Assembly: GCA_963753345.1 (NCBI GenBank)
Contig: CAVWBU010000049.1
Location: 32,001 to 96,000 of the forward strand
Direction of reading: 5' to 3'
DNA: 64,000 bases
DNA from: an uncultured Fibrobacterota bacterium
Lineage (GTDB): Bacteria > Fibrobacterota > Chitinivibrionia > Chitinivibrionales > FEN-1185
In this document: positions 738-53,609 of the stretch, piece by piece
How positions within the stretch are numbered: position 1 is the first letter of the stretch
Layout of the letters: the number at the start of each line of letters is the position of its first letter
Made by a program: the position numbers and the translations under genes
The notes under the pieces: model-generated
What the model was told of the DNA's origin: nothing
Databases searched by the model: none
Seen by the model: the letters and a program-made list of their open reading frames with translations, nothing else

Positions 738-1138
738 GGTGGGGGAGGTTTCCCCCTCGCTCCGGCCTCCTCGGCCTTTGGCCTGCGGTGTCCTTCGCTA
801 CCCCCTCCTGGGTAGCCGCCTTGATAAAGCAGTTGCAAGACCAGGCATTGTTGTGGCGGCACCCACGAGCGATATCCAAGAAAAGTTGAAAGTTGACAGT
901 TGGCAGTTGACAGCAGGACTGGGAAAAGAAAATCCGAGTTTGTTTTGAGTGTTCCGATTGGCGCAATAATAAAGCTAGACTGAATAGACTTCTTCTGCCG
1001 CGCGTTAGGTGGACCGGAGGGTGCGCCAGAGCGCATTGTCGCCTGATCCCCAGCCGAAGGCGATAGGGACAGGCGGCAACGAGGCCGAAGGGACGAGCCC
1101 GGAGGGAGACCGGCCCGAACGTAGCGAGGGCAACGCCC
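738..1138. repeat. Composite structured intergenic element: unit A (738-865), AGTTGAC-type heptamers (884-914), unit B (1002-1138, +)
   Basis: Near-collinear with 11232-11634 and with the reverse complement of 5929-6346. Confidence 0.92.
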
Positions 1139-1192
1139 TGCTTTTATCTCGCTTTGTAAAGCGGTGCCCCCACCAGGATTTGATCTTCTTCT

Positions 1193-1927
1193 TTATATCC
1201 GCACCATCATCGCCAGCCCAATCGCCTTATAGAGCGCCTTCACAAGCGGGGGCGCCCAGAAGCGTTTGGCGTACTTTACGATGTCCTTGTCCGGGTGTTT
1301 CTCTTTCTTGAAAAGCGAATACAAAAACGGCCGGTCGGTGTTGCTTTTCCCCGTTCGTTCGTACACGAGCCGTCCGGTCCTGTCCCAGACCTGCACGTGG
1401 AAGCTCGTCTTTGCGGTGCAGGTAACGGGCCGTTCGTACCCCGGGCCGAACCTGTCGTTGCGCCATCCCGCCGGCTTGATCGTGACCTGCCGTATGGTGA
1501 GGGAATACGGAATCACAACAAGGTCCGCGTTGTATTTGTCGGCGAGCTGATGCACGCGTCCTGAGACACGCTGCAGGAAAGCAGTGTCGCGGTCGAGCCG
1601 CGAGTACCCTGTCCGCGGGAATAGGGCGAGCGAGTCGGATTCGTCGCGCTTGGGTGCGCTGCAGGTCCTGAAATTCTTCGAGACTTCGTAGGCGAGCAGG
1701 CGGTTGGCCGCTTCAACGAAGAATGAATCGGGAAACAACGTGTCGGGCGACGAGGTTGTGTTGTCAACGTACGTCACGCGCAGGCTGTCGAGCGGGATGC
1801 ACAGGGCCGTCTTGCCCCGGTCGAGAAGCATGTTCGAAGGATCGCTTGTGTAAGTTGCCATGCGGCCGGCGCAGCCGGATAGAACCAGCGCGGCGGCAAG
1901 GATAACGGAGAGGGAAATTTGTTTCAT
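1193..1927 (-). CDS. Hypothetical lipoprotein
   Basis: MKQISLSVILAAALVLSGC lipobox signal; start re-set to this Met. Confidence 0.75.
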   Translation of the reverse strand: MKQISLSVILAAALVLSGCAGRMATYTSDPSNMLLDRGKTALCIPLDSLRVTYVDNTTSSPDTLFPDSFFVEAANRLLAYEVSKNFRTCSAPKRDESDSLALFPRTGYSRLDRDTAFLQRVSGRVHQLADKYNADLVVIPYSLTIRQVTIKPAGWRNDRFGPGYERPVTCTAKTSFHVQVWDRTGRLVYERTGKSNTDRPFLYSLFKKEKHPDKDIVKYAKRFWAPPLVKALYKAIGLAMMVRI

Positions 1928-2092
1928 ACTTGTCCGGTTTGCAGTGGGTGAGGGCCGAATATGTATTTTCCTAACGTATGCCATCAATGGAAAGATAGAT
2001 GATCGGCCAGGGTTGCCGGTATCGGGGACTTACGAGCATGGGTTTTCGGAATCTCTGCGTATGAGCCATCCATGCGGCGCCTTTGTTTCGCC

Positions 2093-2132
2093 AACCCATC
2101 AATCAATCAACTCATGAATCCATCAACCCATT
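2093..2132. repeat. Degenerate octamer tandem repeat (AAYCMATC-like, x5)
   Basis: aacccatc aatcaatc aactcatg aatccatc aacccatt. Confidence 0.6.
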
Positions 2133-2166
2133 CACGCTGGCTTTCCTTTAGAGAAAGGAGTGGCCT

Positions 2167-2940
2167 ATGAACAAACAAATGGTGACGCTGTTTTCGGTTG
2201 TGTGTGCCGCAATTGTCGTCGCGGTGATCGTTTTCGCCGTGGTGCCGAAGAAGGCCGCCCAGTCGGGCGCCAAGTCGGGACAGACCCTGGAGCAATCGGG
2301 CCAGTTCGATGCCGCGATGTCGGCCTATGCGTCCGCGCTTGTAAAGCTTTCGGAAGGCCGCCGCTTTACCGGCATTCCCGACAATACCACTGCCGCCAAC
2401 CTCAAGCCTCAAACCTGGGAAAAGCCCATTGCCGATTTCGTGGACTGGCTCAACGCAGGCGGAAAGGCCACCCCGGAGGTTGCAGATCTTATCGGGGGGC
2501 TTGAACGCTGCATGCCGAAGGTGAAATACGAGAATTTCGTTTTCGATTTTAAGATGAAGAAGGCCTCGGCGGCCGATTATGCCGCTGTGTGGCGCCAGGT
2601 GTTTTGTCCCGAGGGAACGTGTCCGCCCGCCGTGATCGAAAAGGCGTTTGCCCAGAGCGACGTTATCGTCACGCTGCGGGGCAACAACATATATTCGTAT
2701 TTGGTAAGCCTTGTCAACGGCGAATCCGGCAAGCGCACCGATGTCCCCGTCGAGCAGGACATGACCCCTTCGTTTCTCGCAAAGCCGGGCAAGTACTGCC
2801 TTGTCATCAAAAGCACCACCATGTTCAAGGACAAACGCGAGTGGGTCTCCGGCCAGGAGGCCGTGACGTTTGTTGTGCCCGATTCCGTTACCGTGATGTC
2901 GGCGCTCTTGAGGACCGAGGTGGGCAGGGTGGCAAGGTAA
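2167..2940 (+). CDS. Hypothetical protein with N-terminal membrane anchor
   Basis: AGGAG RBS, hydrophobic N-terminus, 257-aa ORF. Confidence 0.75.
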   Translation: MNKQMVTLFSVVCAAIVVAVIVFAVVPKKAAQSGAKSGQTLEQSGQFDAAMSAYASALVKLSEGRRFTGIPDNTTAANLKPQTWEKPIADFVDWLNAGGKATPEVADLIGGLERCMPKVKYENFVFDFKMKKASAADYAAVWRQVFCPEGTCPPAVIEKAFAQSDVIVTLRGNNIYSYLVSLVNGESGKRTDVPVEQDMTPSFLAKPGKYCLVIKSTTMFKDKREWVSGQEAVTFVVPDSVTVMSALLRTEVGRVAR

Positions 2941-3292
2941 TTATCAAAGTTGAAAGTTTAAAGTTTAAAGTTGAAAGGAGATCGCGTAAGTATCCCTGTG
3001 CCGCGACTCTCCCGTGTCAGGCCATCACCCTTGGACACGCTCAGGGTGAGCGATATTTCAGAATCTATCTGAGGATTGTAACCGCCTTTCAACCAAGATA
3101 TCTCCATCAATTCCTCACAATACAAATCTTTCTCCCGCCCCTAGCGGAATTTATTTTGTTAGGCCGTTTGATCATGGTTCTTGCGCACCCCGCGGATAGG
3201 CCCTATGGCAGTACTCATTGCAGTCCCCCGAATCATTACCTCCGATCACATTTTCGCGTTTTATATTCACACTCAACTGAGGAGAGGCTAGA

Positions 3293-5338
3293 ATGAATCA
3301 CATCACCTTGTTTGCTCTCGGGGCGGGCGTCCTGGGAGTACTGTATGCCCTCATTACCGCCGGATGGATCATGAAGCAGCCGAGCGGTTCCGACCGCATG
3401 AGGCAGATTTCCGACGCTGTCCGCGAAGGAGCCTCCGCGTTTCTCAACCGTGAATACCGTACCGTTGCAATGGTCGCGGTGGTCATGGTCATCCTTCTGT
3501 ATTTTCTCGGACTGTGGACCGCGGTTGGTTTCATCATCGGCACGGTCGGATCTGCCCTTGCCGGATACATCGGCATGATGGTGACGGTCCGCTCAAACGT
3601 GAGGACCGCGGAAGCCGCGAAAGGCGGGCTGCAAAAGGCCCTCACCCTGGCGTTTAAAGGCGGATCCGTAACAGGTCTCATGGTTGTCGGTCTCGGGCTT
3701 CTTGGCGTTACCGGTTACTATCTCCTTATGAAGCACATTCCCGGCATCACCGTTGACGACAGGTTCCACGCGCTTGTCGGGCTCGGGTTCGGCTGTTCGC
3801 TCATGAGCGTGTTCGCGCGTATCGCGGGCGGCATCTACACCAAGGCCGCCGACGTGGGCGCAGACCTTGTCGGAAAAGTCGAAGCCGGAATTCCCGAAGA
3901 CGATCCCCGCAATCCCGCGGTGATCGCGGACAACGTGGGCGACAACGTGGGCGACTGCGCGGGAATGGCCGCCGATCTGTACGAAACCTACACGGTGACC
4001 ATCGTTGCCGCGATCCTTCTTGCAAAAACGGTGTTCGGCGCGGACAGCATGTGGGTTGAATTCCCGCTGCTCATCGGCGGCATCTCCATCATCGCATCGA
4101 TCATCGGCACCTTCTTTGTCAAGATGGGGAAGAAGCAGTACATCATGGGCGCGCTGTACAAGGGACTGGCGGTTTCCGGCGTGCTTGCCGCGGTCGCCTT
4201 TTACTTTGTTTCCGACATTTTCATAAAGCAACTTCCCGCGGACCAGCAGGTCTTCTCGGCAATGAACGTGTTCTGCATGGCGATTATCGGCCTTGTTCTC
4301 ACGGGCCTCATCGTGATGATCACCGAATACTTCACCTCCACGAGTTTCAGTCCCGTCAAGCATATCGCGGCCGCAAGCCAGACAGGCCACGCCACGAATA
4401 TCATCGCAGGTCTTGCGGTGTCCATGAAGTCAACCGCGCTTCCGGCCCTGGTCATCAGCGCCGCGATCCTTGGAGCTTTTGCTCTTGGAAACGGGTTCCA
4501 GAACGCGGCAGCAGGCCTTTTCGCCATTGCGCTTTCCGCGGTTGCAATGCTGTCAATGACCGGCATCATCGTCGCCATCGACTCCTACGGCCCGATCACC
4601 GACAACGCGGGCGGCATTGCGGAGATGGCCGAGCTGCCCGAGGCGGTGCGGAACATCACCGACCCGCTCGACGCGGTGGGCAACACCACCAAGGCGGTGA
4701 CAAAAGGGTATGCGATCGGTTCGGCGGCCCTTGCGGCGCTCGTGCTGTTCGCGGAATTCTCGCGCTCGTTCGGCGGCGTCATCGCGTTTGACCTGTCCGA
4801 CCCGAGGGTGCTGGTGGGCCTGTTCATCGGCGGGCTTCTGCCCTTCTACTTCGGTTCGCTCCTCATGGAAGCCGTGGGCACGGCAGCCGGCGGCGTCGTC
4901 GAGGAAGTGCGGCGCCAGTTCAAGGCGTTCCCGGGCATCATGAAAGGCACCCAGAAGCCGCAGTACGGCACCTGCGTTGACATTGTGACAAAAGGCGCGA
5001 TCAAGCAGATGATGCTGCCAGCGCTCATTCCCGTTGCGGCGCCCATCCTTGTCGGGTTTGTCCTCGGCAAAGAAGCGCTCGGCGGCGTGCTCATCGGCGC
5101 GATCGTGACCGGCCTGTTCCAGGCAATCGCCATGACCAGCGGCGGCGGCGCATGGGACAATGCAAAGAAGTTCATCGAGAACGGCGCGTTCGGCGGCAAA
5201 GGCTCGGATGCGCACAAAGCTGCGGTCACCGGCGACACCGTGGGCGACCCCTACAAAGACACGGCAGGCCCGGCCATCAACCCGATGATCAAGGTGGTCA
5301 ACATCGTCGCGCTGCTTATTGTCCCGCTTATCAAGTAG
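3293..5338 (+). CDS. hppA: Membrane-bound H+-translocating pyrophosphatase, probably K+-independent
   Basis: [20 protein letters not shown] and [10 protein letters not shown] motifs; GNTTKA has the Lys typical of K+-independent enzymes. Confidence 0.96.
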
Positions 5339-5928: not shown

Positions 5929-6346
5929 GGGCGTTCCCCTCGCCTTCGCTCGGGTTGGCCCTCCTTACGGTCTCGGCCGCCGGCCTCGGGCTGCCACGGC
6001 CCCTAGGCCGGAGTACCGGCGGGGTCCGGGCAGCATCCCGCTTTGGCGGGACCTCCAGTCCGGCCTAACGCAGCGGCAGAAGAAATCTCATTAGTCAATC
6101 TTATTTCTCCGCCATCCAGAATCCCACATTATCCGACAAAGATTCTTCTTGCTTTCAACTGTCAACCGACAACTGCCAACTTTCAACTCTGTTTCTCGGT
6201 GCCGCCACAACAATGTAGGGTTTTGCAGCTGCTTTGTCAAGGCGGCCACCCAGGAGGGGGTAGCGGAGGACCGGCCGCGCACTCCAGAATACCTGTTTAT
6301 CAATGAGCGCAACCGGGCCGTAGCGAGGGGGAAACCTCCCCCACCC
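5929..6346. repeat. Composite element, inverted: unit B (5929-6071, -), heptamers (6151-6188), unit A (6196-6346)
   Basis: Reverse complement of the 738-1138 architecture, with variant arms. Confidence 0.92.
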
Positions 6347-11022: not shown

Positions 11023-11231
11023 TTCAACCGCCTGTTCTACTCCCCAGATGAGTTGTTAAACGCTTAGAATTCGAAAACGGTCAATACCCTCTAATAATAA
11101 GGATAATCGTCGTTGTTTGCCCTAAGAATCTGATCGGCGCGCAAGAATACTCCGTGAAATGCTGCACAGATAGTTAGTGCATAATGGACTTGAGTTGAAA
11201 CTAGGGATACATGTCTTAGAAGAGTCTTTAT

Positions 11232-11634
11232 GGGGGGAGGTATCCCCCTCGCTTCGGCCTCCTCGGCCTTTGGCCTGCGGTATCCTACGCTACCCCCTCG
11301 TGGGTAGCCCCCAAGAAAGTTGATTTGCGAGAAAGAAACTTCGGCTGCGGGGGCACCGAGAAGAATAGTTGAAAGTTGACAGTTGGCAGTTGACAGCAGG
11401 ATTGGGGAAAAGTTCCTGGTTTGTATTGAGTATTCCGATTGGCGCAATAAAAAACCAGCCTGAATAGACTTCTTCTGCCGCGCGTTAGGTGGACCGGAGT
11501 GGTCCCGTCATAGCGGGATTGCCGGCCGACCCCCGGCCGAAGGCCATCGGGGCGGTCCGGCAACGAGGCGAATAGCCGAGCCCGGAGGGAGACCGACCCT
11601 TGCCTTCGTTTTAACGAAGGCAAGGGGAACGCCC
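11232..11634. repeat. Composite element: unit A (11232-11358), heptamers (11367-11397), unit B (11482-11634, +)
   Basis: Closely matches 738-1138, including the linker. Confidence 0.92.
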
Positions 11635-40552: not shown

Positions 40553-40587
40553 AACTCCTCCTTGTTAAGGTTTGGTGGTTTGACGGT

Positions 40588-40825: not shown

Positions 40826-40841
40826 GCAAGGCCTGTGCCAA
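40826..40841 (-). promoter_or_regulatory. Putative sigma54 promoter for the small-protein/Hsp20 operon
   Basis: Minus strand reads TTGGCAC-AGGCC-TTGC. Confidence 0.7.
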
Positions 40842-41054
40842 TGAAAAAGGTGTTGAAATTGACGAGATTTCAGGGGTGATAAAGCAAGGTGTTTGATGAT
40901 GGAACATCAGTCCAAAGTTTATTGTATGATTATGAAACGTCTTTGGTATGATGCACGAGGTGATTGATCTGCGCATTAGTCAATGATTGATCCGTTCCAC
41001 CGCCAAACGATCTGCGGTCACCGACATTCAATTAAGCACCCATCGCCCGCCCGC

Positions 41055-41219
41055 GCGTTAGGCCGGACCGCAGGGGGCGCAAGAGCGCATTGTCGGCCGA
41101 CCCTCGCCGCAGGCGACTCGGGCGGTCCGGCAACGAGGCGAACAGCCGACGACCCTTGGAAGCACCCGAAGGGGTGGCCCGGAGGGAGGGCCGGCCCGAG
41201 TGCAGCGAGGGAAACGCCC
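41055..41219 (+). repeat. Solitary unit B with 27-nt insert
   Basis: GCGTTAGGCCGGACCG...GGAGGGCC...AACGCCC. Confidence 0.9.
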
Positions 41220-41272
41220 AATTCTTCTTTCAACCTCACTTGTCCTTGCGTATTCTCTTATTTTTACTTCTC

Positions 41273-41932: not shown

Positions 41933-41952
41933 CGTTGTATATTTAACCCTTC

Positions 41953-42672
41953 ATGGTCACCTTCTCCTTCATCAGCAAACGTTACGGTTCGCATTCCGGC
42001 CTCGCGGTTGACAATGTCTCCTGCATCGTGGAGCGCGGCGAATTTTTCGCCCTGCTCGGGCCCAACGGCGCGGGAAAAACCACGCTCATCAAGATGCTGC
42101 TCGATTTTGTCAAGCCTACAAGCGGCGGTGCATCCATCAACGGAGTTTCGAGCGCTTCCCCTGCTGCGCGGGAGGGCGTTGGCTACCTCGCCGAAAACGT
42201 TCGCGTGCCCCTGCACCTGTCGGGCAAAGCCTACCTGCGCCGCCAAGCCGAACTGTGCGGCATGTCCGCGGCCGGTGCGGCCGGGACAATCGCCGAAGTC
42301 CTGGAAATCGTTGGCATGGCCGGGAAGGAAAATGCGGCGATGAAGACCTATTCCAAGGGCATGCTGCAGCGCATCGGGCTTGCCGCGGCCATGATACCGG
42401 GCACAAAGCTCCTGGTGCTTGACGAACCGGTGAGCGGCCTGGACCCGCTCGGTATCCGCGACGTGCGGCGCATTATGGAAGGACTCAAGCGGAAAGGCGT
42501 GACCATCATCCTCAATTCACATTTGCTGTCGGAGGTTGAAAAGACCTGCGACACTGCCGCCATCATCGACAAGGGGAGAATCGTCCTCAAAGGCGCGATA
42601 TCGTCCATTGTCCGCGAGGGCGAGACGCTCGAAGACGTGTTCGTGCGCGTGATCGAAGGGCAGCATGCGTAA
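41953..42672 (+). CDS. ABC transporter ATP-binding protein
   Basis: GPNGAGKT, YSKGM, LDEP, H-loop. Confidence 0.95.
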   Translation: MVTFSFISKRYGSHSGLAVDNVSCIVERGEFFALLGPNGAGKTTLIKMLLDFVKPTSGGASINGVSSASPAAREGVGYLAENVRVPLHLSGKAYLRRQAELCGMSAAGAAGTIAEVLEIVGMAGKENAAMKTYSKGMLQRIGLAAAMIPGTKLLVLDEPVSGLDPLGIRDVRRIMEGLKRKGVTIILNSHLLSEVEKTCDTAAIIDKGRIVLKGAISSIVREGETLEDVFVRVIEGQHA

Positions 42673-43473
42673 TTTCTTCCATATTGTAAAGTATACGGTT
42701 GTCGACATCATCCACCAGAAGAGCTTTCTCGTGCTGCTCATCGTGAGCATCGGGTTCGTAATGTTGCTCCGCGGCTGCTACTCGGGCAATTACACGGTGA
42801 ACGGCAGAACGGTCGACGGTTTGACGGTCGCGTGGCACGCGTCCATCGTCGCGTTTCACGTTGTGGCTGCCGGTGTGCTGCTTATTGCCGCAATCTTTTC
42901 CATGAATCTGCTGAGGCGCGACCGCGAAGACGGGACCGCCCAGTACATGCTGTCCAAGCCTCTGCCCCGCATCACCTATGTGTTCGGCCGCGCGATCGGC
43001 GTGTGGCTTGTTTCATTCGCGTTCATGTTCGCGCTTCACCTCACCATTTTTATCATCACGCTCGCCAGCGCGGGCGGGACCATGCCCGGATACCTTGTCG
43101 CGTCGTGTGTGTGCTCCGCAAACGTGCTCTTTATGGTCCTGCTCGTGTGCCTGATGTCGCTTTACATGCCGGATTTCGCCGCGGCCCTTGCGGGATTGGG
43201 CGTGGCGGCGGTGAGCTACGCGGCCGACTCTTTTTTCCATGCCGCGCAGACCAGGCTGGTGCAGGCCATGATGCAGAACCATCCCCTGAACGCTCCGCCG
43301 TGGGCAATGGCCTGGCCCAAGGTATGCTCGCTGCAGGATTGCGCGGTTACCTTGATAAACGGCAAAGCCTTTCAGCCGATCGGGCCCGTCCATCCCGGTG
43401 ATCGTGATGGCCTTTTACGTAATGTGCTATCGCGGCCGGGCTGGTTCTGGCGTTCGAGCGCAGGGAAATCTGA
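42665..43473 (+). CDS. ABC-2-type permease, apparently frameshifted near 43395-43435
   Basis: TM helices, LSKPLPR motif; last TM segment and ...AFERREI* lie in shifted frames. Confidence 0.75.
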
Positions 43474-43495
43474 CACTTCCGGCAAAGGACACAGC

Positions 43496-44668
43496 ATGAA
43501 GACCCTCTATTTCGACCTCGTGTCGGGCGCAAGCGGCGACATGATCCTTTCATCGCTGATCGACACCGGCGTGCCCGTGGACTGGCTCCGGAGGCAACTC
43601 GCCAAACTGAGGATTCCCGGCTTCACCATTGACGTGGAAAAGCAGAAGCGGAGCGGGATTTCCGCCTCGCATCTTGTGATGAAGTGGGACGCGCCGCGCA
43701 CCTACCGCCACCTCCGGGATTTACTAGGCATGATCAAATCTGCGGGCTACGGCGCGGGCGTGTATTCCCGGTGCGAGTCGGTTCTTATGCGGCTGGGAAA
43801 AGCCGAGGCAAAGGTGCACGACATGCCGCTTGAAAAAGTCCACTTTCACGAGGTGGGCGCGGTGGATACGATTGTTGACGTCGCGGGAATCTGCCTGTGC
43901 CTGGAGAAACTCGCTGCAGACGAGGTGGTTTTCTCGTCGCTCACCGACGGCAGGGGCACGGTGAACACCCAGCACGGCGTGATGCCGGTGCCGGTGCCCG
44001 CCGTGGCTGCCATGGCACAGGGGTTCGATCTGCGGATACTTGACATTCAGGGAGAGCTTCTCACGCCAACGGGGTGCGCCGTTCTCACCGCGCTGGGCAG
44101 GCAAGTCACAACCGGCGTATCCGGCACGGTGCTCTCCACCGGCTACGGCTGCGGCGACAAGTCGTTCAAGGAAACACCGAACGTTCTCCGCGTGTTTCTA
44201 GTCGAGCGGGATATATCCTCGCCGGCCGGCCGCGTGTGCGTCCTGGAATCGGACATGGACCACATTTCGGGCGAGATCATGGCCGATGCGGCCGGAAGGC
44301 TCATGCGCGAAGGCGCGCTCGATGTTTCGTGGCTGCCGGTGTTCATGAAAAAGGGAAGGCCCGGCTACAGACTCACCGTGCTGTGCGCGCCGGACAAGCA
44401 GCAGGAACTCGTCGACGCCATTATTATTCACACACGCACGCTCGGCGTGCGCATGCGCATGGAAGACCGAGTTGTGGCGGAAAGAAAGCAGGGTACTGCC
44501 AAACTCCGGGGGCAGGGTATTGAGGTGAAGGAATGTTCGTACAAGGGGCACTCGTTTACAAAGCCGGAATACGAGGCGCTGGCGAGGATAAGCGAGAAAA
44601 CCGGGACGCCGGTTGTCGAGCTTATGGAGGAATACCACGAAGGGATAAGGCGGCCGCGGCGGCGTTGA
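43496..44668 (+). CDS. larC: Nickel pincer cofactor biosynthesis protein LarC
   Basis: LYFDLVSGASGDM, HFHEVGAVD, GELLTPTG, MKKGRPG, KPEYE; has its own RBS and ATG. Confidence 0.92.
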   Translation: MKTLYFDLVSGASGDMILSSLIDTGVPVDWLRRQLAKLRIPGFTIDVEKQKRSGISASHLVMKWDAPRTYRHLRDLLGMIKSAGYGAGVYSRCESVLMRLGKAEAKVHDMPLEKVHFHEVGAVDTIVDVAGICLCLEKLAADEVVFSSLTDGRGTVNTQHGVMPVPVPAVAAMAQGFDLRILDIQGELLTPTGCAVLTALGRQVTTGVSGTVLSTGYGCGDKSFKETPNVLRVFLVERDISSPAGRVCVLESDMDHISGEIMADAAGRLMREGALDVSWLPVFMKKGRPGYRLTVLCAPDKQQELVDAIIIHTRTLGVRMRMEDRVVAERKQGTAKLRGQGIEVKECSYKGHSFTKPEYEALARISEKTGTPVVELMEEYHEGIRRPRRR

Positions 44669-44811
44669 GAGGGCGCGGCGGCGGCCGGCATGCCGGGACA
44701 CAACCCTTGTTTGCCTCCCTCGTGATATAGTATTTTACCCAATCCGCTCAAACGATACTCAGGCATTTTTCCCGTTGTTGCTATAAATCAATATCCTGAA
44801 AGGTGGATTCG

Positions 44812-45975
44812 ATGAGGTATCTGTTTACTTCTGAAAGTGTGTCGCAGGGACATCCGGACAAAGTTGCCGACCAGATCTCCGATGCGGTGCTCGACGCCAT
44901 GCTCGAGCAGGACCCGTATTCCCGCGTCGCGTGCGAGACGCTGGTGACCACCGGCCTCGTGGTGGTGGCCGGCGAAATAACGAGCAAGGCGATTGTCGAC
45001 ATTCCCGGCGTGGTCCGCCGCACGATTTCCGAAATCGGCTACAACGACCCCGGCCTCGGGTTTGAGTCGAAAAGCTGCGGCATTCTCGTGACACTTGACA
45101 AACAGTCACCCGATATCTCCCAGGGAGTCACCGCGGGAAAGGGACTTCACAAGGAGCAGGGCGCGGGCGACCAGGGCATGATGTTCGGCTATGCCTGCGA
45201 CGAGACCAAGACCTACATGCCGCTCGCCATTCATCTTGCGCACCGGCTGGTGGAATACCTCACGTTCGCGCGGGAAAAGAAACTCATCAAGTACCTGCGT
45301 CCCGACAGCAAGTCGCAGGTGACCGTTGAATACGAGAACGACAAACCCGTGCGCGTCCATACCGTGGTGCTTTCCACCCAGCATGCGCCCGATGTTTCGT
45401 ACCAGAAAATCAGGAAAGACATGATCGAGAAGATCATCAGGAAGGTGATCCCGGCAAAACTGCTTGACAAGAAAACAGTTTTTCACGTCAATCCCACGGG
45501 ACGGTTTGTGATCGGCGGCCCTCACGGCGACAGCGGCGTTACGGGCCGCAAAATTATCGTCGACACGTACGGCGGATACGGCGGCCATGGCGGCGGAGCT
45601 TTTTCGGGCAAGGACCCCACCAAGGTTGACCGGAGCGCCGCGTACGCCGCGCGCTGGATCGCCAAGAACCTTGTGGCGGCCAAGCTGGCGAAAAAGGTGA
45701 GGATACAGGTGTCGTACGCCATCGGCGTCGCAAAGCCCATTTCGATTTATGTGGACACCTACGGCACCGGCATCATGTCCGACGACAAGATAAGCAGGAT
45801 CGTGGAAAAAGTGTTCGACCTCCGTCCCGCCGCCATCATCGAAAAGCTCAAGCTGCGGCGGCCCATCTACCGCGAGACCGCCCGCAACGGCCATTTCGGC
45901 CGCGAGCTCCCGAATTTCACATGGGAGAAGCTTGACATGGTGGCAAAAATCAGGAAAGCCGCGAAGCTCAAGTAA
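44812..45975 (+). CDS. metK: S-adenosylmethionine synthetase
   Basis: [33 protein letters not shown]. Confidence 0.98.
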
Positions 45976-46159
45976 GGCGGTTTTGTTGAGAATGAAGTGA
46001 GGGCATAGAGCGATCTATGCCCTTTCTTATAGGAAAAGCCTCTCGCAAAGATCGCCACGGTCGCAGAGAATATAAAAAGGTATTTTACCTTTTGCGCTCC
46101 TGGCGTTCTTGGCGAGATATTTTTTAGAGTAGACTTCTGAAATCAAGGAGAATCGCTCT

Positions 46160-47743
46160 ATGGACAACCGCCCGTCCGTCGTTCTCACCGGCAACGACCT
46201 CACGGTCGAGGACATCGTGGCCATCGGCATCGGCGACAAGCGCGTCACCATCGATCCGGCGGCGCTTTCCCGGTGCAAGGAGTCGCGCGACTTTCTCGTC
46301 CGTGAAGTGGAGGCGCGGCGCATCATCTACGGGGTGAACACGTCGTTCGGCCCCATGTGCAACAAGATCATCGCCGACGCCGACATCGAGACGCTGCAGG
46401 TCAATCTCATCAGGAGCCATGCCGCGGGGCTCGGCGATCCCATCAAACCCTACATCGCGCTGGCCGTGCTCGCCGTGCGGCTCAACACGCTTGTCAAGGG
46501 ATTTTCCGGCGTGCGCATCGAACTGGTGGCGCTCATGGCGGAAATGGTGAACGCCGGCATCGCGCCCTATATTCCCGAATGCGGCAGCGTGGGCGCGTCG
46601 GGCGACCTGGTGCACCTGGCGCACACGGCGCTCGCCGTTATCGGCGAGGGAAACGTGTTTTACAAGAAGGAATTCATGCCCGCGCGTGCGGCGTTTGCGA
46701 AAGCGGGGCTCGCGCCGGCGCGCCTGAGCTACAAGGAAGGGATCGCCATCATGAACGGCACGAGCGCCATGACCGCCATCGCGGCGTTTGCGCTGTTCGG
46801 CGCAAAAAAACTGCTGCGTCTCGCATGCGTCAACGCGGCGTTCGCCATCGAGATCTTCGGCGGCATCGACGACGCGTTCGACGAAGACCTGCACGAGGTG
46901 AAGCCGCATCCGGGTCAGAAGGCCGTCGCCGCGATCATCCGCAGGCTGTACGGCGGCTCGAAGAACATCACCCTCCGGAAAGACATGCACGAGATCATCC
47001 GGCGCCAGCAGACCGACGGCCGCGTGTTCGAGACGAGCATCAACGTGCAGGACGTGTATTCCATCCGGTGCGCGCCGCAGATCCTCGCGCCCGTGAGCGA
47101 GGCCATCGAGGCCGCGGCTCGCACCATAGAGATCGAGGCGAATTCGTCGAACGACAATCCCATCATCATTCCCCAAAAGCAAAAGATCATCCACGGCGGC
47201 AATTTCCACGGCCAGAGCGTGGGCTTTGCCATGGACATGCTGTGCATGGCCGTCGCCGAGTTGTGCACGCTGTCGGAGCGGCGGCTCAACAAGCTGCTTG
47301 ACAAGAGCCTCAACGAGGGCCTGCCCGAGCATCTCATTCCGGGGACCGTGGGCCTCACCATGGGGTTCATGGGCGCGCAGTACCTGGCCACCTCCACCAC
47401 GGCGGAAAACAGGCAGCTCGCGAACCCGGTGAGCACGCTGTCAATCTCGTGCAACGCGTCGAACCAGGACGTGGTGAGCATGGGTACGGTCGCGGCGCGC
47501 AAGGCGTTCAAGGCGGTGAGCAACGCCAAGCACGTGCTCACGCTCGAGACCCTCGCGCAGATGCAGGCGCTCTCCTTTCGCAATGCGGCGACCATGGGGC
47601 GCGGCACCACCAAGGTGTACAACACGCTCAAGCCGCATTTCTCGGTCTACGACAACACACGGGTGTTCCACGACGACCTGGTGAAATTCAGGAAGCTGCT
47701 GTTTTCAAGCCAGTTGTTTGATGACTTGGAAGTTTATTATTGA
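46160..47743 (+). CDS. MIO-dependent aromatic amino acid ammonia-lyase (HAL/PAL/TAL family)
   Basis: YGVNTSFG, GSVGASGDL (ASG), QDVYSIRC, GGNFHG, NQDVVSMG. Confidence 0.93.
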   Translation: MDNRPSVVLTGNDLTVEDIVAIGIGDKRVTIDPAALSRCKESRDFLVREVEARRIIYGVNTSFGPMCNKIIADADIETLQVNLIRSHAAGLGDPIKPYIALAVLAVRLNTLVKGFSGVRIELVALMAEMVNAGIAPYIPECGSVGASGDLVHLAHTALAVIGEGNVFYKKEFMPARAAFAKAGLAPARLSYKEGIAIMNGTSAMTAIAAFALFGAKKLLRLACVNAAFAIEIFGGIDDAFDEDLHEVKPHPGQKAVAAIIRRLYGGSKNITLRKDMHEIIRRQQTDGRVFETSINVQDVYSIRCAPQILAPVSEAIEAAARTIEIEANSSNDNPIIIPQKQKIIHGGNFHGQSVGFAMDMLCMAVAELCTLSERRLNKLLDKSLNEGLPEHLIPGTVGLTMGFMGAQYLATSTTAENRQLANPVSTLSISCNASNQDVVSMGTVAARKAFKAVSNAKHVLTLETLAQMQALSFRNAATMGRGTTKVYNTLKPHFSVYDNTRVFHDDLVKFRKLLFSSQLFDDLEVYY

Positions 47744-47760
47744 GAATTAGAAGAAGATAT

Positions 47761-48160
47761 GGGCGTTCCCCCGGTTGTGAAACACAACCGGGGTCGGTCT
47801 CCCTCCGGGCTCGGCTGTTCGCCTCGTTGCCGGACCGCCCTATGCCTATCGGCCGGGTCGGCCGGCAATTCGCTTTGGCTCACCCTCCGGTCCACCTAAC
47901 GCGCGCAAACAGGAATCTATTCTGTCAAGTGGTAATACTTGCGCAATGCGAAAATCTTGTTGATCAGCGCAGAAAATCCTGATTCGTCAAGCCTGCGGGG
48001 ATTGTGGAAGATTCCTGCTGCCAAGCGCCAGGCAGGACTGGAGGCCGCGCTGGAGCGCGGTGCTGCCTGACCACGGCCCGCAGGGCCCTCGTGGCAGGCA
48101 GCCCCGAGGCCGTAGGCCGAGACCGGAAGGAGGGCCGCCGTCGTCTTCTGCGGGGCGCCC
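47761..48160. repeat. Head-to-head pair of unit B: 47761-47902 (-) and 48025-48160 (+)
   Basis: Both copies carry the full core motif set. Confidence 0.9.
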
Positions 48161-48266
48161 AACTCATTTCTTTCCAATTCTATTCTGCAAAAAAAGTCCC
48201 TTTATCACCGTTTTCTATCTTATTTTTAATACAATGGCGAGGGCTGCCATTCCACAAGGAGGAACC

Positions 48267-48803
48267 ATGTCAGGCGCGAAGAAGACACTGATTGCCGGAT
48301 GCTGCATTGCGGGGCTGCTTGCGCTGCCGCTTTCGGCGCAGCAGATGGTCGACAACTGGAAGATCACGCCGGCCACGGATGGAAGCACGCTGGCCATGGC
48401 GATATCGAATCCGGCCACTCCTCTCAACATCGAAGCGGAGATGGACTATTCGGTCGCGAACAACGGCGTGCCGTCAAAGGCGACGGTAAAATTCAAGACA
48501 GGCGTTCAGCGCGCCATGACGCCTGAGGAAGTGGATTTTTACTGGTCGAATCTCAAAGGCCCCAACGCTTTCTGGAATTATATGCAGGGACAGGGAAAGA
48601 CCAACAGCTTCACCTCGAACACCGACCAGATTCCCTTCAGCTTTCTCGGACGCACGGTAAGGGTAATTTCGAACGAAAACAATTTATACATCGGCACGCT
48701 GGCCCAGAACACCAATACACCCGATTGGTTCTCGCTCGACATCAAGGGAAACCGCGTCTTGTTCTGGCGGAAAGCGGTGAAGGAAATTCAACAGCTCAAG
48801 TAG
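48267..48803 (+). CDS. Unknown secreted protein, paralog 1 of 3
   Basis: AGGAGG RBS, signal peptide, FKTGVQRAMTPEEV...AVKEIQQLK. Confidence 0.85.
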   Translation: MSGAKKTLIAGCCIAGLLALPLSAQQMVDNWKITPATDGSTLAMAISNPATPLNIEAEMDYSVANNGVPSKATVKFKTGVQRAMTPEEVDFYWSNLKGPNAFWNYMQGQGKTNSFTSNTDQIPFSFLGRTVRVISNENNLYIGTLAQNTNTPDWFSLDIKGNRVLFWRKAVKEIQQLK

Positions 48804-48820
48804 GGTTTTTTGAAATTGAC

Positions 48821-48860
48821 AAAAAGAAAGCCGCCGAGTCGATCCGGCGGCTTTCTTTTT
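48821..48860. terminator. Bidirectional intrinsic terminator
   Basis: aaaaagaaagccgccg...cggcggctttcttttt between convergent genes. Confidence 0.85.
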
Positions 48861-48886
48861 GCGCGCTTTGCGCGCGGAAAACGGGC

Positions 48887-50314
48887 CTATCGGGCCGGAA
48901 GTCGGCCGGCCTTATTGGCCGAGTCGCGCGGAAGCTGGGCAACCTGCGCCTGCATCTCCTCAACGCTGCACGCGACGGGAAACTCCGACTGGTAGGCCTT
49001 GACGGTTTGCGCGGCATCGTCGCGCCGTTTCTGTGCCAGTTCGATTTTCACGAGCATGCCGTACTCGCGCTCGCGCCATGCGCCCACCGGATATGACGCA
49101 AGATAGCTGCGAATTCCTTGTTCTGCTTCCCCGTAACGGCCGAGCTTGGAAAACAGGATGCTGTTGCTTCGGTGAAGCACGGCCTCGCGCACGAGGCTGT
49201 CGTTCGTGGCGGCGACGGCCTTTCTATAGGCTTCGAGCGCGCTTTCCCAGCGGCCCGTCTTGCTGTAGCAGAGCGCAAGATCGCAGTACGCGACGTCTTG
49301 GTCAAGCGAATGGCGGGAGAGATAGTTGACAATAGCGACTATCGTGCCGTCATAATCGCCCCGGCGGATGAGGTGCCGGACCGCGGCATAGGCCTGCTGT
49401 GCGGAAGCGAGGTCGTCCGCCGAGGACCTGGAGCTCTGGTGGGCATCCGTGCCGCGGGGCGGCGCGAGTGGAAAGGCCCACGGGCCCAGTGCTTCGAAAT
49501 CTTCGGCCAGCTGCATGTGCAGCAACCGGGGCAGGGGTCCTGTGCTCAGGGAGCCGCCCGCGCCGTCCGCAAGGCAGAGTTCGCCGCAGGACACGGCTGT
49601 CTGGCCGCCGGTCCGGCTGCTGCGGACCGTCACCGTTCCCTCGATGACCGAAACGCGCACTTCGTCGCCAGTGCGGTCAACCGAAAAATGAGTCCCCGTG
49701 GCCACAGCCGTAACCGTTCCGCAGCGGACCGCGATGGTGTCGTAGAGCCTCTTGTGCGCTGCGATTAGAACGGCGCCGTGTCCAAGGTCGAAATGCACGA
49801 CCCGCCTTTCGGGCCGGCTGATCACAACGCTCGAATTGGGGCATACCTTCAAAGCGCACATCCTGTCGAAAACGACAATGCTATCTCTTGCCGACGTTGA
49901 AATCGCACCATCCTGTGATGCCGGAGCGGCTGCAGCGGGCAAAGAATGGTTTCTGTTCTGCAGACCGAACACATAATACACCGAAGCAACCGCCGCGAAA
50001 ACAAGCACGGCCGCCGCTGCCAGGAACCTGAGCGGCGGTCTTTTCGACGGAAATTCGAGCATCCGCGGCGGCCGGCTGCCTAGCGCGAGGCCGCGGTCGA
50101 TGGCGGCCATTGCGGCGGCGCTGTCGAAACATGAATCCGCCGGTGCAGGACGTTTGAGGAGCGCGAGCGTGGCACGCGCTTCGCGGTACGCGCGTCCGCA
50201 GCGCCCGCATACCGCAACGTGCGTCTCCACGGCGAGCCTTTGCTCTTTGTCAAGAAGACCGTCGCACAGCAGATACACCTGACGTTCGGTTACGTTACAT
50301 TTCATATCATGCAA
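48887..50314 (-). CDS. Anti-sigma factor: zinc-finger (HxxxCxxC), TM helix, FecR domain, TPR repeats
   Basis: HVAVCGRC; ATGTHFSV..VSVIEGTV; C-terminal helical repeats. Confidence 0.85.
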   Translation of the reverse strand: MHDMKCNVTERQVYLLCDGLLDKEQRLAVETHVAVCGRCGRAYREARATLALLKRPAPADSCFDSAAAMAAIDRGLALGSRPPRMLEFPSKRPPLRFLAAAAVLVFAAVASVYYVFGLQNRNHSLPAAAAPASQDGAISTSARDSIVVFDRMCALKVCPNSSVVISRPERRVVHFDLGHGAVLIAAHKRLYDTIAVRCGTVTAVATGTHFSVDRTGDEVRVSVIEGTVTVRSSRTGGQTAVSCGELCLADGAGGSLSTGPLPRLLHMQLAEDFEALGPWAFPLAPPRGTDAHQSSRSSADDLASAQQAYAAVRHLIRRGDYDGTIVAIVNYLSRHSLDQDVAYCDLALCYSKTGRWESALEAYRKAVAATNDSLVREAVLHRSNSILFSKLGRYGEAEQGIRSYLASYPVGAWREREYGMLVKIELAQKRRDDAAQTVKAYQSEFPVACSVEEMQAQVAQLPRDSANKAGRLPAR

Positions 50315-50882
50315 CTTCCATCATCCCGCTTTTCTTGAGTTGCTTCGTGACAAGCTTGCGTCCCTTGAACAGTATGGCCTTTATCGCATTTTCGCTTTTC
50401 CCGGTCTGCTTTGCAATGTCCTCAAGGCTTGCGTCTGCAAAGTAGAACATCGAAAAGATCTCCCGGCTGATTTCCGGCATGCCCTCGATGACCGACACCG
50501 CCTTTTCAAACATACGCCGGCGGTCGATGCCCGCCTCGACGTCCTGGTCGCCGGCGAGAACCTGTTCGGGCACATCGTCGAGCCCCGTTGTCTTCCGGTG
50601 TTCGGTCTCCCTGGCAAGCACCGTGAACGTAACGTTGACGGTTATCCGGTAGAGCCAGGTGCTGAACTTGCAATGCCCCTTGAAGTCGCCTATTTTCCGG
50701 ATGACGCGCATCGCCACTTCCTGGAAGATGTCCTGCGTCAGCTGGGGGTTCCTGGTGATGCGCGTAGCGACCGCGTGTATCATCCCGCTATTTGCAAAGA
50801 GCAGTTCCCGAAGCGCCTGTGGGTCACCATTCCGGCTTTTTGCCACAAGGTCGCTCTCGGGAAGAGTACCTGCATTCATCAA
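50307..50882 (-). CDS. ECF sigma-70 factor
   Basis: DIFQEV, FSTWLYRITVN, region-4 HTH; overlaps the anti-sigma gene. Confidence 0.92.
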   Translation of the reverse strand: MMNAGTLPESDLVAKSRNGDPQALRELLFANSGMIHAVATRITRNPQLTQDIFQEVAMRVIRKIGDFKGHCKFSTWLYRITVNVTFTVLARETEHRKTTGLDDVPEQVLAGDQDVEAGIDRRRMFEKAVSVIEGMPEISREIFSMFYFADASLEDIAKQTGKSENAIKAILFKGRKLVTKQLKKSGMMEVA

Positions 50883-51255
50883 TAAGACCCCGAACAGGAG
50901 GAAAAGTTACCCGGATAGTGAAAAGTCTTGATACTGGTGTCCTAAATATATGATCTTCATGGCAGATGCGGCATGCAAAAAAACCGGAAACCGCTTGCCT
51001 GTGACTGCCGTCTAACTGGTAGTTGAAGGTAAATCGCCCGCTCCAAAGAGAAAAAAGAGGTCGCCGACAGAATCGGGGGAAGAATCAATGGGAAAATTGT
51101 ATATTTTCTTCAGTTTTCTTGATCTTCAACATTCAATTTGACGACTTAATATATGGATCACGTAATCAGCAGTTGAAGAGTGTCCGCTGCCAGGGGCGAG
51201 GGGCTTTAAGCTACCATTGTACCAAGACCGGGCAATTTTAAACAAGGAGAAGAGC

Positions 51256-51795
51256 ATGATGCGAGTCCTGAAGAAATCGGTTTTCGCTGTGTGCGCTGTC
51301 GCTGTCATCGGAGCGCAAGGGGTGTCCGGGCAGCAGGCTTTTGACAACTGGGCAATATCTCCTGGCCAGGACGGTAAGTCAGTCACCATGACCTATGCGA
51401 ACCCGGGTACCTACCTGAAGATCGAATCGGACCTGGTTCTTTCCGTTGACGCCGCCGGAGCGGCGACCAGCGGAACCATTCATTTCAAAGACGGCGTTCA
51501 GCGCGCCATGACCCCGGGAGAGGTGGCGTTTTACTTTACGGAATACAACGCCGGCGGCGCCTACTGGGACTTCCGGGAGAAACAGGGGACGCTCACCAAA
51601 TTCGACTTCAACAGCGACGCGATCCCGCAGGGTTTCGCTGGCCAGCAGGTGCGGGCGGTGTCCAAAGCAGGGAAGCAGTACATCGGCGTCATGAGTCTGC
51701 TGCCGGCCTCGCCGGACTGGTTTTCGCTCAACATCAGGGGCAACACGATGCTTTTCTACAAGAACGCGGTGAAAGAGATACAAGTTCTAAAATAA
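51256..51795 (+). CDS. Unknown secreted protein, paralog 2 of 3
   Basis: AAGGAG RBS, signal peptide, FKDGVQRAMTPGEV...AVKEIQVLK. Confidence 0.85.
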   Translation: MMRVLKKSVFAVCAVAVIGAQGVSGQQAFDNWAISPGQDGKSVTMTYANPGTYLKIESDLVLSVDAAGAATSGTIHFKDGVQRAMTPGEVAFYFTEYNAGGAYWDFREKQGTLTKFDFNSDAIPQGFAGQQVRAVSKAGKQYIGVMSLLPASPDWFSLNIRGNTMLFYKNAVKEIQVLK

Positions 51796-51812
51796 ATTCT
51801 AAGATTTGAGTT

Positions 51813-52422
51813 GGGTGTTTCCCTCGCTACGCTCGGGCCGGTCTCCTTCCGGGCCACCCCTTCGGGTGCTTCCAAGGGTCGTCGGCTGTCCGCCTCGTTG
51901 CCGGACCGCCCCGATGGCCTTCGGCCGGGCACCCCGTCGGGTGCTTCCAAGGGTCGTCGGCCGGCAAAAGGCAAGAGACACAATGATGAAGCGCGAAGCG
52001 CTATTTCCATGCCTTGGGGAACGAAGTGACAATTCGCTCTGGCTCACCCTGCAGTCCACCTAACGCGGCGCAGAAGATCACCGCCAAATTTTATATCCGG
52101 CTTTCGCTTCTTTTATCCCTTGTCAAATCGGAGAGGTCCGTGCTGAGCGAGGTCAAAGCGGGCCGGGGGTGAGGTCAAATGAAATAGAACGATTGGTTTA
52201 GGAGATTAAAGGATAGAATAATTCCGAAAAGTCAAATCACCAGGTATCGCTTTTATCTGGGGATTATACAACAGGGCAATGCTCCATTGCCCTGCGCCAG
52301 GTCGGACTGAAAAAATGGTCCCGCTAAAGCGGGATTACCGCCTGACCACGGCCCGAAGGGGTAACGAGGCGAACAGCCGAGCCTGAAAGGAGGACCGCCG
52401 CTGCTTTAGCAGCGGGGCGCCC
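51813..52422. repeat. Head-to-head pair of unit B: 51813-52066 (-, with nested inserts) and 52294-52422 (+)
   Basis: Core motifs present on both; the first copy carries two 27-nt inserts. Confidence 0.88.
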
Positions 52423-52446
52423 ATTTTACTTGAATTTGATCGATTC

Positions 52447-52998
52447 TCACTTCATCACCTGAATTTCCTTCACCGTATTGTTTGTAAACTGAAGCGGGCC
52501 GCAGCAGGCGCCGTCAACGGCCAGCGAATATCCCTCTCCCATGCCTGCCAGCTTGGCCAGTTTTCCAACATACTGCTTTCCGTCGTTGAGGATCAGCCGC
52601 GCGGTTTTCCCGAATACATCGGCAGGCAGCTTGTCGCTTGCAAGCGTGTACGATGCCGTTTTCCCGTGCTTGCCGTAGTAATCCCACACCGCCACCTGCC
52701 CTCCGGATTGTTCGAAATGCAGCGCAAGTTCGCCCGGTTTCATCTGGCGCTGGACGTTGTTTTTGAACGTTACGGTGCCGGAAGACGGCGTGCCGTCGGC
52801 ATTGACGGAAAATGCGAATTCCGCTTCAATGCCTAAATACGATTCAGGATTGCTCACGGACATGGCGGTGATCCGGCCGCCGTTGTCCGTTACCAGCTTG
52901 AGCCCTTCAAACGTTTCTTCGCCGGCAAAAGAAGCTGTCGGAAACACGATCAATGCGCACAGCGAACTTAGCCCCCATGTCAATAATAGGTTTTTCAC
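52447..52998 (-). CDS. Unknown secreted protein, paralog 3 of 3
   Basis: AGGAGG RBS with GTG start, FKNNVQRQMKPGEL...TVKEIQVMK. Confidence 0.85.
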   Translation of the reverse strand: MKNLLLTWGLSSLCALIVFPTASFAGEETFEGLKLVTDNGGRITAMSVSNPESYLGIEAEFAFSVNADGTPSSGTVTFKNNVQRQMKPGELALHFEQSGGQVAVWDYYGKHGKTASYTLASDKLPADVFGKTARLILNDGKQYVGKLAKLAGMGEGYSLAVDGACCGPLQFTNNTVKEIQVMK

Positions 52999-53160
52999 GA
53001 TGACCTCCTTCTTACTTAGGAAAATACAATGCGCGCGAATTATCCGGTACGCCTCTATCATTTTCGCCCAATGAGACCGAATTCGAGGGGTCACAAGGCG
53101 GCCGTGTTTTTTGGGATGGTGTGAAATAAGAAAAAGACTCGCAGGAAAATAGAAAGACGT

Positions 53161-53609
53161 GGTGGGGGAAGTGTCCCCCTAGGGTTCAGCCAACCGGCGC
53201 AACGTCAGGCTCAAATGCGAATGTTGCCAGTTGTCTGAACCCATACCCCCTCGTGGGTGGCCCCCAAGTGTGTTGGTTTGCAAGAAAGAAACCTCTGCCG
53301 CGGGGGCACCGAGAAAGCGGGTTGAAAGTTGAAGGTATGAGAAGAATTCCTCACAGGCTTGCAAAGATGTTAGTTGGCGCAAGAAAGAAAATGTGACAGA
53401 ATTGATTTCCCCTGCCGCGCGTTAGGGGCGACTGGAGGCTGCGCTAGAGCGCGGTGCCGCCCGGACCCGCCGCGCTGCGCGGCATAGGGCCGTTGCGGCC
53501 CGAGGCCAAAGGCCGACGACCCTTGGAAGCACCCGAAGGGGTGGACCGAAAGGAGAACCGACCCCATGTAAATTCGCACAGTCGGGCGAATTCACATGGG
53601 GTAACGCCC
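53161..53609. repeat. Composite element: unit A (53161-53311) and unit B (53419-53609, +)
   Basis: Core motifs, residual heptamers and the 27-nt insert. Confidence 0.9.

Follow-up and report, generated by a model that had tools for sequence, protein, structure and literature searches.

Unit B, a structured intergenic element present in 11 copies in a 64,000-nucleotide (nt) stretch of DNA from an uncultured Fibrobacterota bacterium (contig CAVWBU010000049.1 of assembly GCA_963753345.1, positions 32,001 to 96,000; hereafter, the window), is the core module of an uncatalogued mosaic, interspersed, non-coding repeat family of the order Chitinivibrionales. The explanation that we favour, and to which we give about an even chance, is that of a non-autonomous, structure-dependent repeat that is handled in trans and remodelled by recombination between its copies. 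To our knowledge, the bacterial interspersed repeats described to date are simple palindromes or miniature inverted-repeat transposable elements (MITEs). The family of Unit B combines a branched fold with a conserved core that persists throughout an order and through 29% divergence within one genome, and it fills about one intergenic gap in eight.

Unit B is repeated throughout the genome

The source genome (G000) is a metagenome bin of 4.52 Mb in 55 contigs, 94% complete, and five other species of the same genus (G001 to G005) were available for comparison. Its place in the Chitinivibrionales agrees with two findings: the window encodes a TIGR02147 'Fsuc_second' paralogue, and the nearest MetK in the species collection, at 79% identity, carries the label of a Chitinivibrionales metagenome-assembled genome. 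The first-pass annotation, made from the letters of the window alone, had claimed 11 copies of Unit B. All of them aligned end to end, and a profile built from the 11 found exactly those places in the window and 396 matches in the whole genome, or 400 after one iteration. The contigs of at least 30 kb (4.21 Mb) held 347 matches, about one per 12 kb, and the copies measured 130-190 nt. The annotation had also described the element as not gene-specific, and we likewise found the copies to be non-coding and independent of any particular gene; the neighbours of B homologues in other genera were unrelated housekeeping genes.

A branched fold is supported by covariation within and across genera

The fold was drawn from copy 4 (positions 18840-18975, minus strand) and comprises six helices, P1 to P6, around near-invariant purine-rich junction strands. 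In the numbering of this copy, P1 pairs 1-5 with 130-134, P2 pairs 7-10 with 108-111 and P3 pairs 21-26 with 31-36, while P4 spans 37-78, P5, with its tandem G.A, 80-96 and P6 113-129. P1 (GCGYY/RRCGC) is the closing stem and meets P2 and the hairpin P6 in a three-way junction. P2 (4 base pairs, bp) follows P1 after a single A and leads into a second junction that bears P3 (6 bp capped by a 4-nt loop), a long P4 in two or three parts, and P5, in which a C-G pair is followed by tandem G.A/A.G and then by GGCC/GGCC. P6, variable in sequence and length, is flanked by the 3′ strands of P2 and P1. The joining strands, of 10-11 nt, were conserved as GGACYGGAGG and CCYGGARGGAG. The near-constant parts were GGAC-NNN-AGG, CC-NNN-AGGAG, the ends GCGYYAG... 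and ...RRCGCCC-A, and the tandem G.A motif. Pairing between the two junctions, sought by eye only, was not consistent across genera.

With a covariance model built on this fold (R1), 122 copies were aligned, drawn from G000 and from four sister species. Standard pairs filled 86.5% of 4,321 cells, against 74.9% (standard deviation 0.3) in 500 shuffles and 31-45% in a slid control, in which partners were shifted by 1-3 columns; 26 of the 37 pairs had changed on both sides. Because this alignment was fitted to the model and its copies are related, these figures lean towards structure. The comparison across genera is the stronger test. Both R1 and a second covariance model (R2) detected homologues in other genera of the order, and in 20 such copies 89.5% of cells were paired, compared with 58.2% after shuffling and 35-45% after sliding, with changes on both sides at 30 of the 37 pairs and a covariation score of 0.49 against 0.12. 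These homologues kept the ends and the junction strands, and every arm differed in sequence.

The pair switches that the first-pass annotation had read from the 11 copies were found again on this larger scale. At positions 4 and 5 of P1, U-A occurred in 78 and 82, C-G in 30 and 28 and U.G in 9 and 9 of the 121 copies that have letters at these places. The second stem, P2, covaried as described, P3 did likewise, and the last hairpin, P6, was indeed replaced by unrelated sequences that still pair. The structural alignment that had been proposed as a check gave covariation above both the shuffled and the slid controls. That structure and not sequence is conserved was confirmed by the pairing across genera taken together with a median pairwise identity of only 71% among the copies in G000.

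Unit B is embedded in a larger mosaic

As for the boundaries first assigned to the element, the 11 places are real, but the element is wider than stated on both sides. Most copies shared about 45 nt of conserved sequence upstream of B, which in consensus reads TTGGCGCAA...TTGACnGAATAGATTTCTTYTGCCGC; on the other side, the first base after ...CGCCC was an A in 180 of 188 copies and was followed by a T-rich stretch. The view of B as a single unit had, moreover, missed a composite of about 400 nt, in which Unit A, a tract of GTTGAMA heptamers, the ~45-nt upstream module and B follow one another in this order. Unit A is a second structured repeat of 141 nt, with the hairpin GGGGGAAGTnTCCCCC at its start, 289 genomic copies and no match in Rfam; 204 of the 289 had a co-oriented B downstream, mostly 80-200 nt away. 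The linker opens with three to five tandem heptamers (window positions 874-915 and equivalent linkers), and TTGAC/TTGGC motifs also occur between A and B.

Merging of the units resulted in 452 loci: 194 A-B composites, 136 with B alone (solo B), 83 with A alone (solo A), 29 B-/B+ doublets arranged head to head (median spacer, 123 nt) and 10 other combinations. The four main kinds are all represented in the window. A head-to-head doublet with a spacer of about 120 nt was also present in G018, which belongs to another family. Upstream of the copies inspected from G018 and G066, in which the B core was conserved, neither the heptamer tract nor Unit A was seen. The heptamers also stand alone, in both orientations, just past gene ends (the folD locus of G002 and G004, L010 and L011); at the folD site of G002 and G004 they occur without A and B.

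Three of the window copies (6, 9 and 11) bear a nested mini-hairpin of 27 nt, with the stem CACCC/GGGTG and the loop GAAG, which copy 9 carries twice. Of its 92 matches in G000, 40 were identical. Almost all of the matches directly followed GA, either where B is unpaired or within the first loop of A, and a block made of a 65-nt insert and the mini-hairpin was common to several copies. We considered the mini-hairpin as a mobile insertion and dropped the idea. Since each site has its own sequence variant and blocks are shared with other copies, the mini-hairpins probably go back to a small number of old events that copying or conversion then spread. The same motif was visible near homologue L047, in another family of the order. 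Separately, we noticed a third repeat family, made of CCCTCTCC, a loop and GGAGAGGGG, followed by GGGGTGAGG (contigs C18, C26 and C28 of G000; L080 and L087), which is present in other genera too and sometimes hosts the mini-hairpin.

The family is old and its loci have been remodelled

By BLAST, the element was detected within the genus only, where four of the five other species have it abundantly; the fifth (G003, 99% complete) had no copy of B by R1 or R2. R2 gave matches in 24 of the 81 genomes of the order, belonging to 14 of its 33 genera, and several of the other genera were multi-copy (24, 21 and 15 scored matches of at most 41). Across a 151-genome sample of the phylum, matches outside the order were limited to three genomes, each with a single weak one, and one motif scan of viral contigs resulted in two exact matches, one of which was a weak, truncated look-alike of 18 bits. 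The family is old in the order and has expanded to hundreds of copies in one genus.

The first-pass annotation had called the element propagating. No clean insertion with its empty site was found when G000 was compared with G001 to G005 at folD and three other window loci, or among seven pairs of strain-variant contigs; block replacement, subtype swapping and decay were seen instead. The composite at 11230-11634 is also present in G001, where B belongs to a different subtype and Unit A has changed. The flanks stayed about 90% identical at one orthologous locus where another subtype had taken the place of B. The orthologue of copy 9 in G001 is compact, without the two mini-hairpins and the 65-nt block, and copy 10 with its flanking spacer has other sequence in its place at the orthologous G001 locus. 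At the site of the window doublet, G002 keeps only a decayed remnant of the left arm (copy 7), and copy 8 is absent. The G000 bin itself includes strain-variant duplicate contigs that are 91-99% identical (for instance, C4/C16, C44/C45/C46 and C15/C55) and diverge chiefly by block replacements within intergenic repeats; among strain-variant contigs we observed a block difference of about 420 nt and one microhomology deletion. These orthologous comparisons represent old, remodelled copies rather than fresh insertions. On C45, at ~3240-3300, a run of about 75 A stands where the twin contig has ordinary sequence, and is probably an assembly artefact.

The stretch was present in 12 DNA-type sequencing runs, which originate from peat, freshwater-sediment and soil metagenomes. 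Contigs from four runs, mapped on 40001-60000, showed no bridging empty site; no conclusion follows from them, since they break at the repeats, depth piles up there and their joints are mostly cross-matches between copies. The B family bears on the assembly and binning of Fibrobacterota from peat and sediment.

Element loci lie in all kinds of gap, with a weak link to gene orientation

Gaps and gene orientations were counted with crude gene calls based on open reading frames (ORFs). Element loci occupied 452 of about 3,530 intergenic gaps (~12%), fairly evenly spaced. That the copies lie in tandem, convergent and divergent gaps alike, as first reported for the window, held for the genome: the numbers were 224, 118 and 91 of the 452 loci, the other 19 being at contig edges, on a background of 2151, 693 and 689 gaps. 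Within tandem gaps, the orientation was the same as or opposite to that of the genes in 66:33 A-B composites, 35:10 solo A and 31:36 solo B. In 165 of 254 cases, Unit A followed a co-oriented gene and began at a median of 24 nt past its stop codon. The 3′ end of B faced a gene end in 97 cases (median distance, 29 nt) and a gene start in 101 (median, 61 nt). A weak agreement between orientation and GC skew (odds ratio 2.1, p 0.008) is confounded with gene orientation. The left flanks of the copies shared only a weak consensus, and no terminal inverted repeat was found in B.

One strand folds, somewhat more likely as DNA than as RNA

Within the helices, G.A/A.G oppositions exceeded C.U/U.C by 179:108 over all cells of the genus set, by 29:10 among its sporadic variants and by 33:2 in the other genera. 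Because such an excess is meaningless in a duplex, one specific strand folds, and it is the plus strand of each copy as listed below. Tandem G.A recurs in P5, whose flanking GA motifs were present in 116 and 106 of the 122 copies; it also occurs in P3 (26 of the 122) and in many P6 hairpins. G.U pairs made up 136 of 4,321 cells in the genus set and 11 of 592 in the other genera (2-3%), where G.U and A.C stood at 11:10. Among the P6 loops, 66 of 113 were triloops, chiefly GAA, GCA, GTA and AAA closed by C-G, and GAA was the commonest loop of P4 and P5 too; neither GNRA nor UUCG was present among the hairpin loops tallied. Published work describes d(GNA) triloops and GCGNAGC mini-hairpins as exceptionally stable in DNA (PMC3201870, PMC13037366). 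The triloops, the few G.U pairs and the lack of a consistent transcriptional orientation incline us to single-stranded DNA over RNA, and we consider DNA somewhat more likely to be the active form.

Under the favoured explanation, handling in trans, the fold of B would form when a locus becomes single-stranded, in our judgement more probably as DNA, during replication, repair or DNA uptake, than in a transcript. The constant junction core would be recognised by a protein acting in trans, which would copy or cut B or act on it in some other way. B would have transposed in the past, and the copies of today would mostly be reshaped by recombination or gene conversion among themselves. If single-stranded DNA is the active form, B would extend the small set of folded DNA substrates (REP/RAYT, attC/IntI, IS200/IS605 and NTS/Ssn) and would point to a partner enzyme.

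Three observations count against DNA. The whole case for it is made from loop types and pair statistics; G.U outnumbered A.C by 74:47 among the sporadic variants of the genus set; and the upstream module of this genus contains, 10-17 nt before P1, TAGATTTC, which resembles the TAnnTTT -10-like motif preceding the tRNA genes of this genome. For these reasons we consider an RNA form less likely but plausible. Genome-wide, several of the tRNA-gene motifs had TTGACA 17 nt upstream. The upstream module showed no -35 properly spaced for TTGACA-N17-TAnnTTT promoters, and the upstream modules of other genera differed from that of this genus. In the region 40000-59999, none of the six copies was preceded by a sigma-70-type promoter, the totals being at shuffle level, nor did any have an intrinsic terminator at its 3′ end (total 28, against 25.5 in shuffled sequence). 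Among the listed sequencing runs, none of RNA type contained the stretch, which has no bearing on expression.

The strongest alternative to handling in trans, a serious rival that we nevertheless consider less likely, is that B is a functional structured RNA in many copies. It could be a small RNA or a 3′-UTR (untranslated region) module bound to a protein or the ribosome via the two conserved AGGAG-like junction strands, or else a new kind of ribozyme that cleaves or processes itself; copy number would be secondary. A multi-junction fold with near-invariant junctions and covarying helices is the usual signature of functional RNA, and the strand asymmetry suits a transcript as well as it suits single-stranded DNA. 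At the two covarying positions of P1, U.G intermediates prevailed over C.A by 18 to 1. The TAGATTTC motif before P1, with its likeness to the element upstream of tRNA genes, argues in the same direction, as does Unit A, which is very likely co-transcribed given its start so shortly past co-oriented stop codons. The 3′ half of B also gave a sub-threshold match to Twister-sister (RF02681) at 18829-18897 (minus strand), of 23 bits against a gathering threshold of 34 (E 0.0065 in a 241-nt search), with one helix of the model deleted in the alignment. We judged this match to be due to chance, as the letters of P5 and P6 on which it falls are not conserved in other genera and a distant homologue (L045) was unmatched. 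A transcript also sits poorly with the absence of any orientation preference of solo B (31:36) and the even split between gene starts and ends downstream (101:97), with an upstream module that is specific to the genus, lacks proper -35 spacing and comes without promoter or terminator at the six copies scanned, and with GNA triloops in place of GNRA or UNCG and so few G.U pairs. Nothing tRNA-like was detected either: ARAGORN reported no tRNA-like or tmRNA-like gene in the window, and the P6 loops are triloops. Were RNA the active form, B would constitute a new class of large structured RNA with hundreds of loci.

A partner enzyme was searched for in the genus and the order

The first-pass annotation had noted no cognate enzyme gene in the window, and we found no candidate there. 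The check for a linked gene that it had suggested agreed with this: PF01797, PF00078 and PF07282 were all unmatched in the assembled G000. Several results weigh against the proposal that B is handled in trans. The Y1 transposase (PF01797) had no match in G000 or G001, despite hundreds of copies of B in each, and it was present in 65 of the 81 genomes of the order with a distribution that does not track B. Among the five genus genomes, reverse transcriptase (PF00078) was found only in G002 and G004, and TnpB (PF07282) only in G001. Clustering of all ORFs of G000 revealed no multi-copy gene family next to the copies. G002 has an IS200-like element in at least six identical copies, with a 144-residue Y1 transposase and classic end hairpins (L074-L077), which is absent from G000, G001 and G003; its end hairpins are unrelated to B. 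Neither target-site duplications nor copy-specific complementarity between flanks exceeded what shuffled pairings gave (102 composites and 190 B). The empty-site comparisons resulted in replacements, subtype swaps and a microhomology deletion. Finally, orthologous sites were still occupied across species at 80-90% nucleotide identity, so the high pairing could reflect selection on each copy for a host function. Insertion sequences present in several copies may have escaped assembly in G000, which is a metagenome bin.

It is also conceivable, and in our opinion unlikely, that B is a self-sufficient structured element, whose junction core is catalytic or recruits housekeeping enzymes, so that the folded strand, DNA or RNA, copies itself between genes. 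Mobility of this kind, without an HUH transposase, a reverse transcriptase or TnpB, would be a mechanism undescribed in bacteria and would account for the hundreds of copies in genomes in which these genes were not found.

Returning to the positions of the loci, we regard as improbable that the A-heptamer-B composite is a domesticated double-stranded DNA cassette, either an array bound by a nucleoid, topology or regulatory protein or a transcription insulator near gene ends, with its hairpin potential a by-product. The direct GTTGAMA repeats and the TTGAC/TTGGC motifs between A and B fit such a cassette, as do elements abutting gene ends at medians of 24-29 nt from stop codons, the fairly even filling of ~12% of the gaps and the site occupancy kept across species. 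REP/BIME elements of E. coli have been reported to bind gyrase and IHF. A double-stranded cassette, however, leaves unexplained the compensatory changes in six helices and the 33:2 excess of G.A, and the B core is conserved in G018 and G066, in whose upstream flanks neither heptamers nor Unit A were seen.

That the covariation arises only from shuffling of hairpin cassettes by gene conversion, B being the decaying junk of one burst, is very improbable: module swapping is evident in the subtype replaced between ~90% identical flanks and in the 65-nt and mini-hairpin blocks common to several copies, and related sequences can beat shuffle controls without real structure, but swapping cannot make new complementary arms, the 20 copies from other genera are 89.5% paired (35-45% when slid) with unrelated arms, and it is the junction strands, not the arms, that are conserved across the order.

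Unit B resembles REP-type repeats in behaviour and exceeds them in structure

No part of the window matched Rfam 15 at the gathering thresholds. The first-pass annotation had tentatively likened the termini to the Flavo-1 motif; this likeness was not supported, since Flavo-1 was unmatched up to E=10 in stretches with copies. Flavo-1 and Acido-Lenti-1 were both absent at that limit from 47500-54000, with five copies, from 18790-19030 and from a distant homologue. The available portions of the literature on Chitinivibrionia and Fibrobacter and on REP/RAYT-type repeats yielded no published description of the B family. The covariance model R2 is ready for annotating these genomes.

In behaviour, B is closest to the REP/BIME/REPIN repeats of Enterobacteria and Pseudomonas, whose RAYT (Y1) transposase gene is typically flanked by REPs, but it is far more elaborate. 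REPs are single palindromes of 20-40 nt with a GTAG or CGTC tag (PMC3116915, PMC3337134, PMC3733652). Like them, B is hairpin-forming and non-coding, produces no target-site duplications and occurs in hundreds of extragenic copies against gene ends with mosaic modules, and its inverted doublets (the 29 B-/B+ pairs, with their median gap of 123 nt) recall REPINs. Unlike them, it has a fold of 130-190 nt with six helices, two junctions and conserved single-stranded junction strands, and a core conserved across an order; it carries no GTAG/CGTC tag, ending instead in GCGYYAG.../...RRCGCCC, and neither G000 nor G001 has a RAYT/Y1 gene.

The BOX/RUP repeats of pneumococci, Correia of Neisseria, ERIC of enterobacteria and bcr1 of Bacillus cereus are in essence MITEs or long palindromes of imperfect symmetry that carry terminal inverted repeats and target-site duplications, and BOX is modular, boxA-(boxB)n-boxC. 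B shares with this group a length of 100-200 nt, an intergenic location, multiple copies and a predicted stable fold, and its A-(heptamer)n-B build is comparable to that of BOX. It differs in its branched fold and order-wide covariation and, from MITEs, in having neither terminal inverted repeats nor target-site duplications.

Among systems that act on folded single strands, attC sites and the ends of IS200/IS605 elements resemble B in that structure prevails over sequence, target-site duplications are absent, and short conserved cores lie at the stem base below a variable terminal structure. The attC sites, 5′-RYYYAAC...GTTRRRY-3′, are arrayed with cassettes next to intI. In B the polarity is reversed (GTTAGG... 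...AAC), and the copies are scattered over all contigs and point either way; no search was made for intI itself. At the ends of IS200/IS605 elements, plain subterminal hairpins lie beside a Y1 gene. A PATE of this group has subterminal hairpins recognised by a Y1 TnpA and inserts 3′ of a fixed tetra- or pentanucleotide. The lack of target-site duplications in B would fit a PATE; G000 has no Y1 gene, the one IS200-like element of the genus (in G002) has unrelated ends, and the left flanks of B show only a weak consensus. The NTS/SRM repeats occur in hundreds of dispersed copies around ordinary genes, function as single-stranded DNA and are handled by the GIY-YIG nuclease Ssn, encoded elsewhere (PMC11893778). 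We take NTS/Ssn as a working analogy for an element that acts without a linked gene, and not as a demonstrated link.

Copies and neighbouring features in the window

The covariance model recovered all 11 copies of the window. It ended copy 11 at 53563; the end first given, 53609, is the correct one because the last hairpin of this copy is long (a 14-bp P6). Five copies are associated with Unit A. Copy 1 (1002-1138, plus strand) is compact and forms the right module of the plus-strand composite 736-1142, of which Unit A occupies 736-873 and the heptamer tract with the upstream module 874-1001. Copy 2 (5929-6071, minus) makes a composite with Unit A at 6191-6345 (minus), and copy 3 (11482-11634, plus), with a long P6, another with Unit A at 11230-11364 (plus). 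Next to copy 5 (21093-21225, plus), a partial Unit A lies at 20904-20966 (plus). Copy 11 (53419-53609, plus), which bears the mini-hairpin as well as the 14-bp P6, belongs to a composite with Unit A at 53160-53313 (plus). Copy 4, the best-scoring copy as well as the fold reference, is solo, with the upstream module 5′ of it at ~18976-19020, and so is copy 6 (41055-41219, plus), in which the 27-nt mini-hairpin follows the GGCCGA of P5. Copies 7 (47761-47902, minus) and 8 (48025-48160, plus) are the left and right arms of a head-to-head B-/B+ doublet with a spacer of 122 nt (47903-48024). Copy 9 (51813-52066, minus) is expanded by two 27-nt mini-hairpins and the block of ~65 nt, and copy 10 (52294-52422, plus) has a truncated P4. 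Unit A, the partner of B in these composites, also occurs alone, at 33303-33462 (plus).

Two further features of the window were recorded. The housekeeping promoters of the host appear to consist of TTGACA, a spacer of 16-17 nt and a TAnnTTT-type element (tRNA genes; 57119-57147 and 57917-57944), which would make them hybrids of a sigma-70 -35 box and a Bacteroidota-like -7 motif. In addition, a low-GC islet at 22152-25072 (GC 0.49 in 24001-28000) encodes a Dam-family adenine methyltransferase (23093-24064) and a toxin-antitoxin pair of Phd/RelE type (24495-25072).

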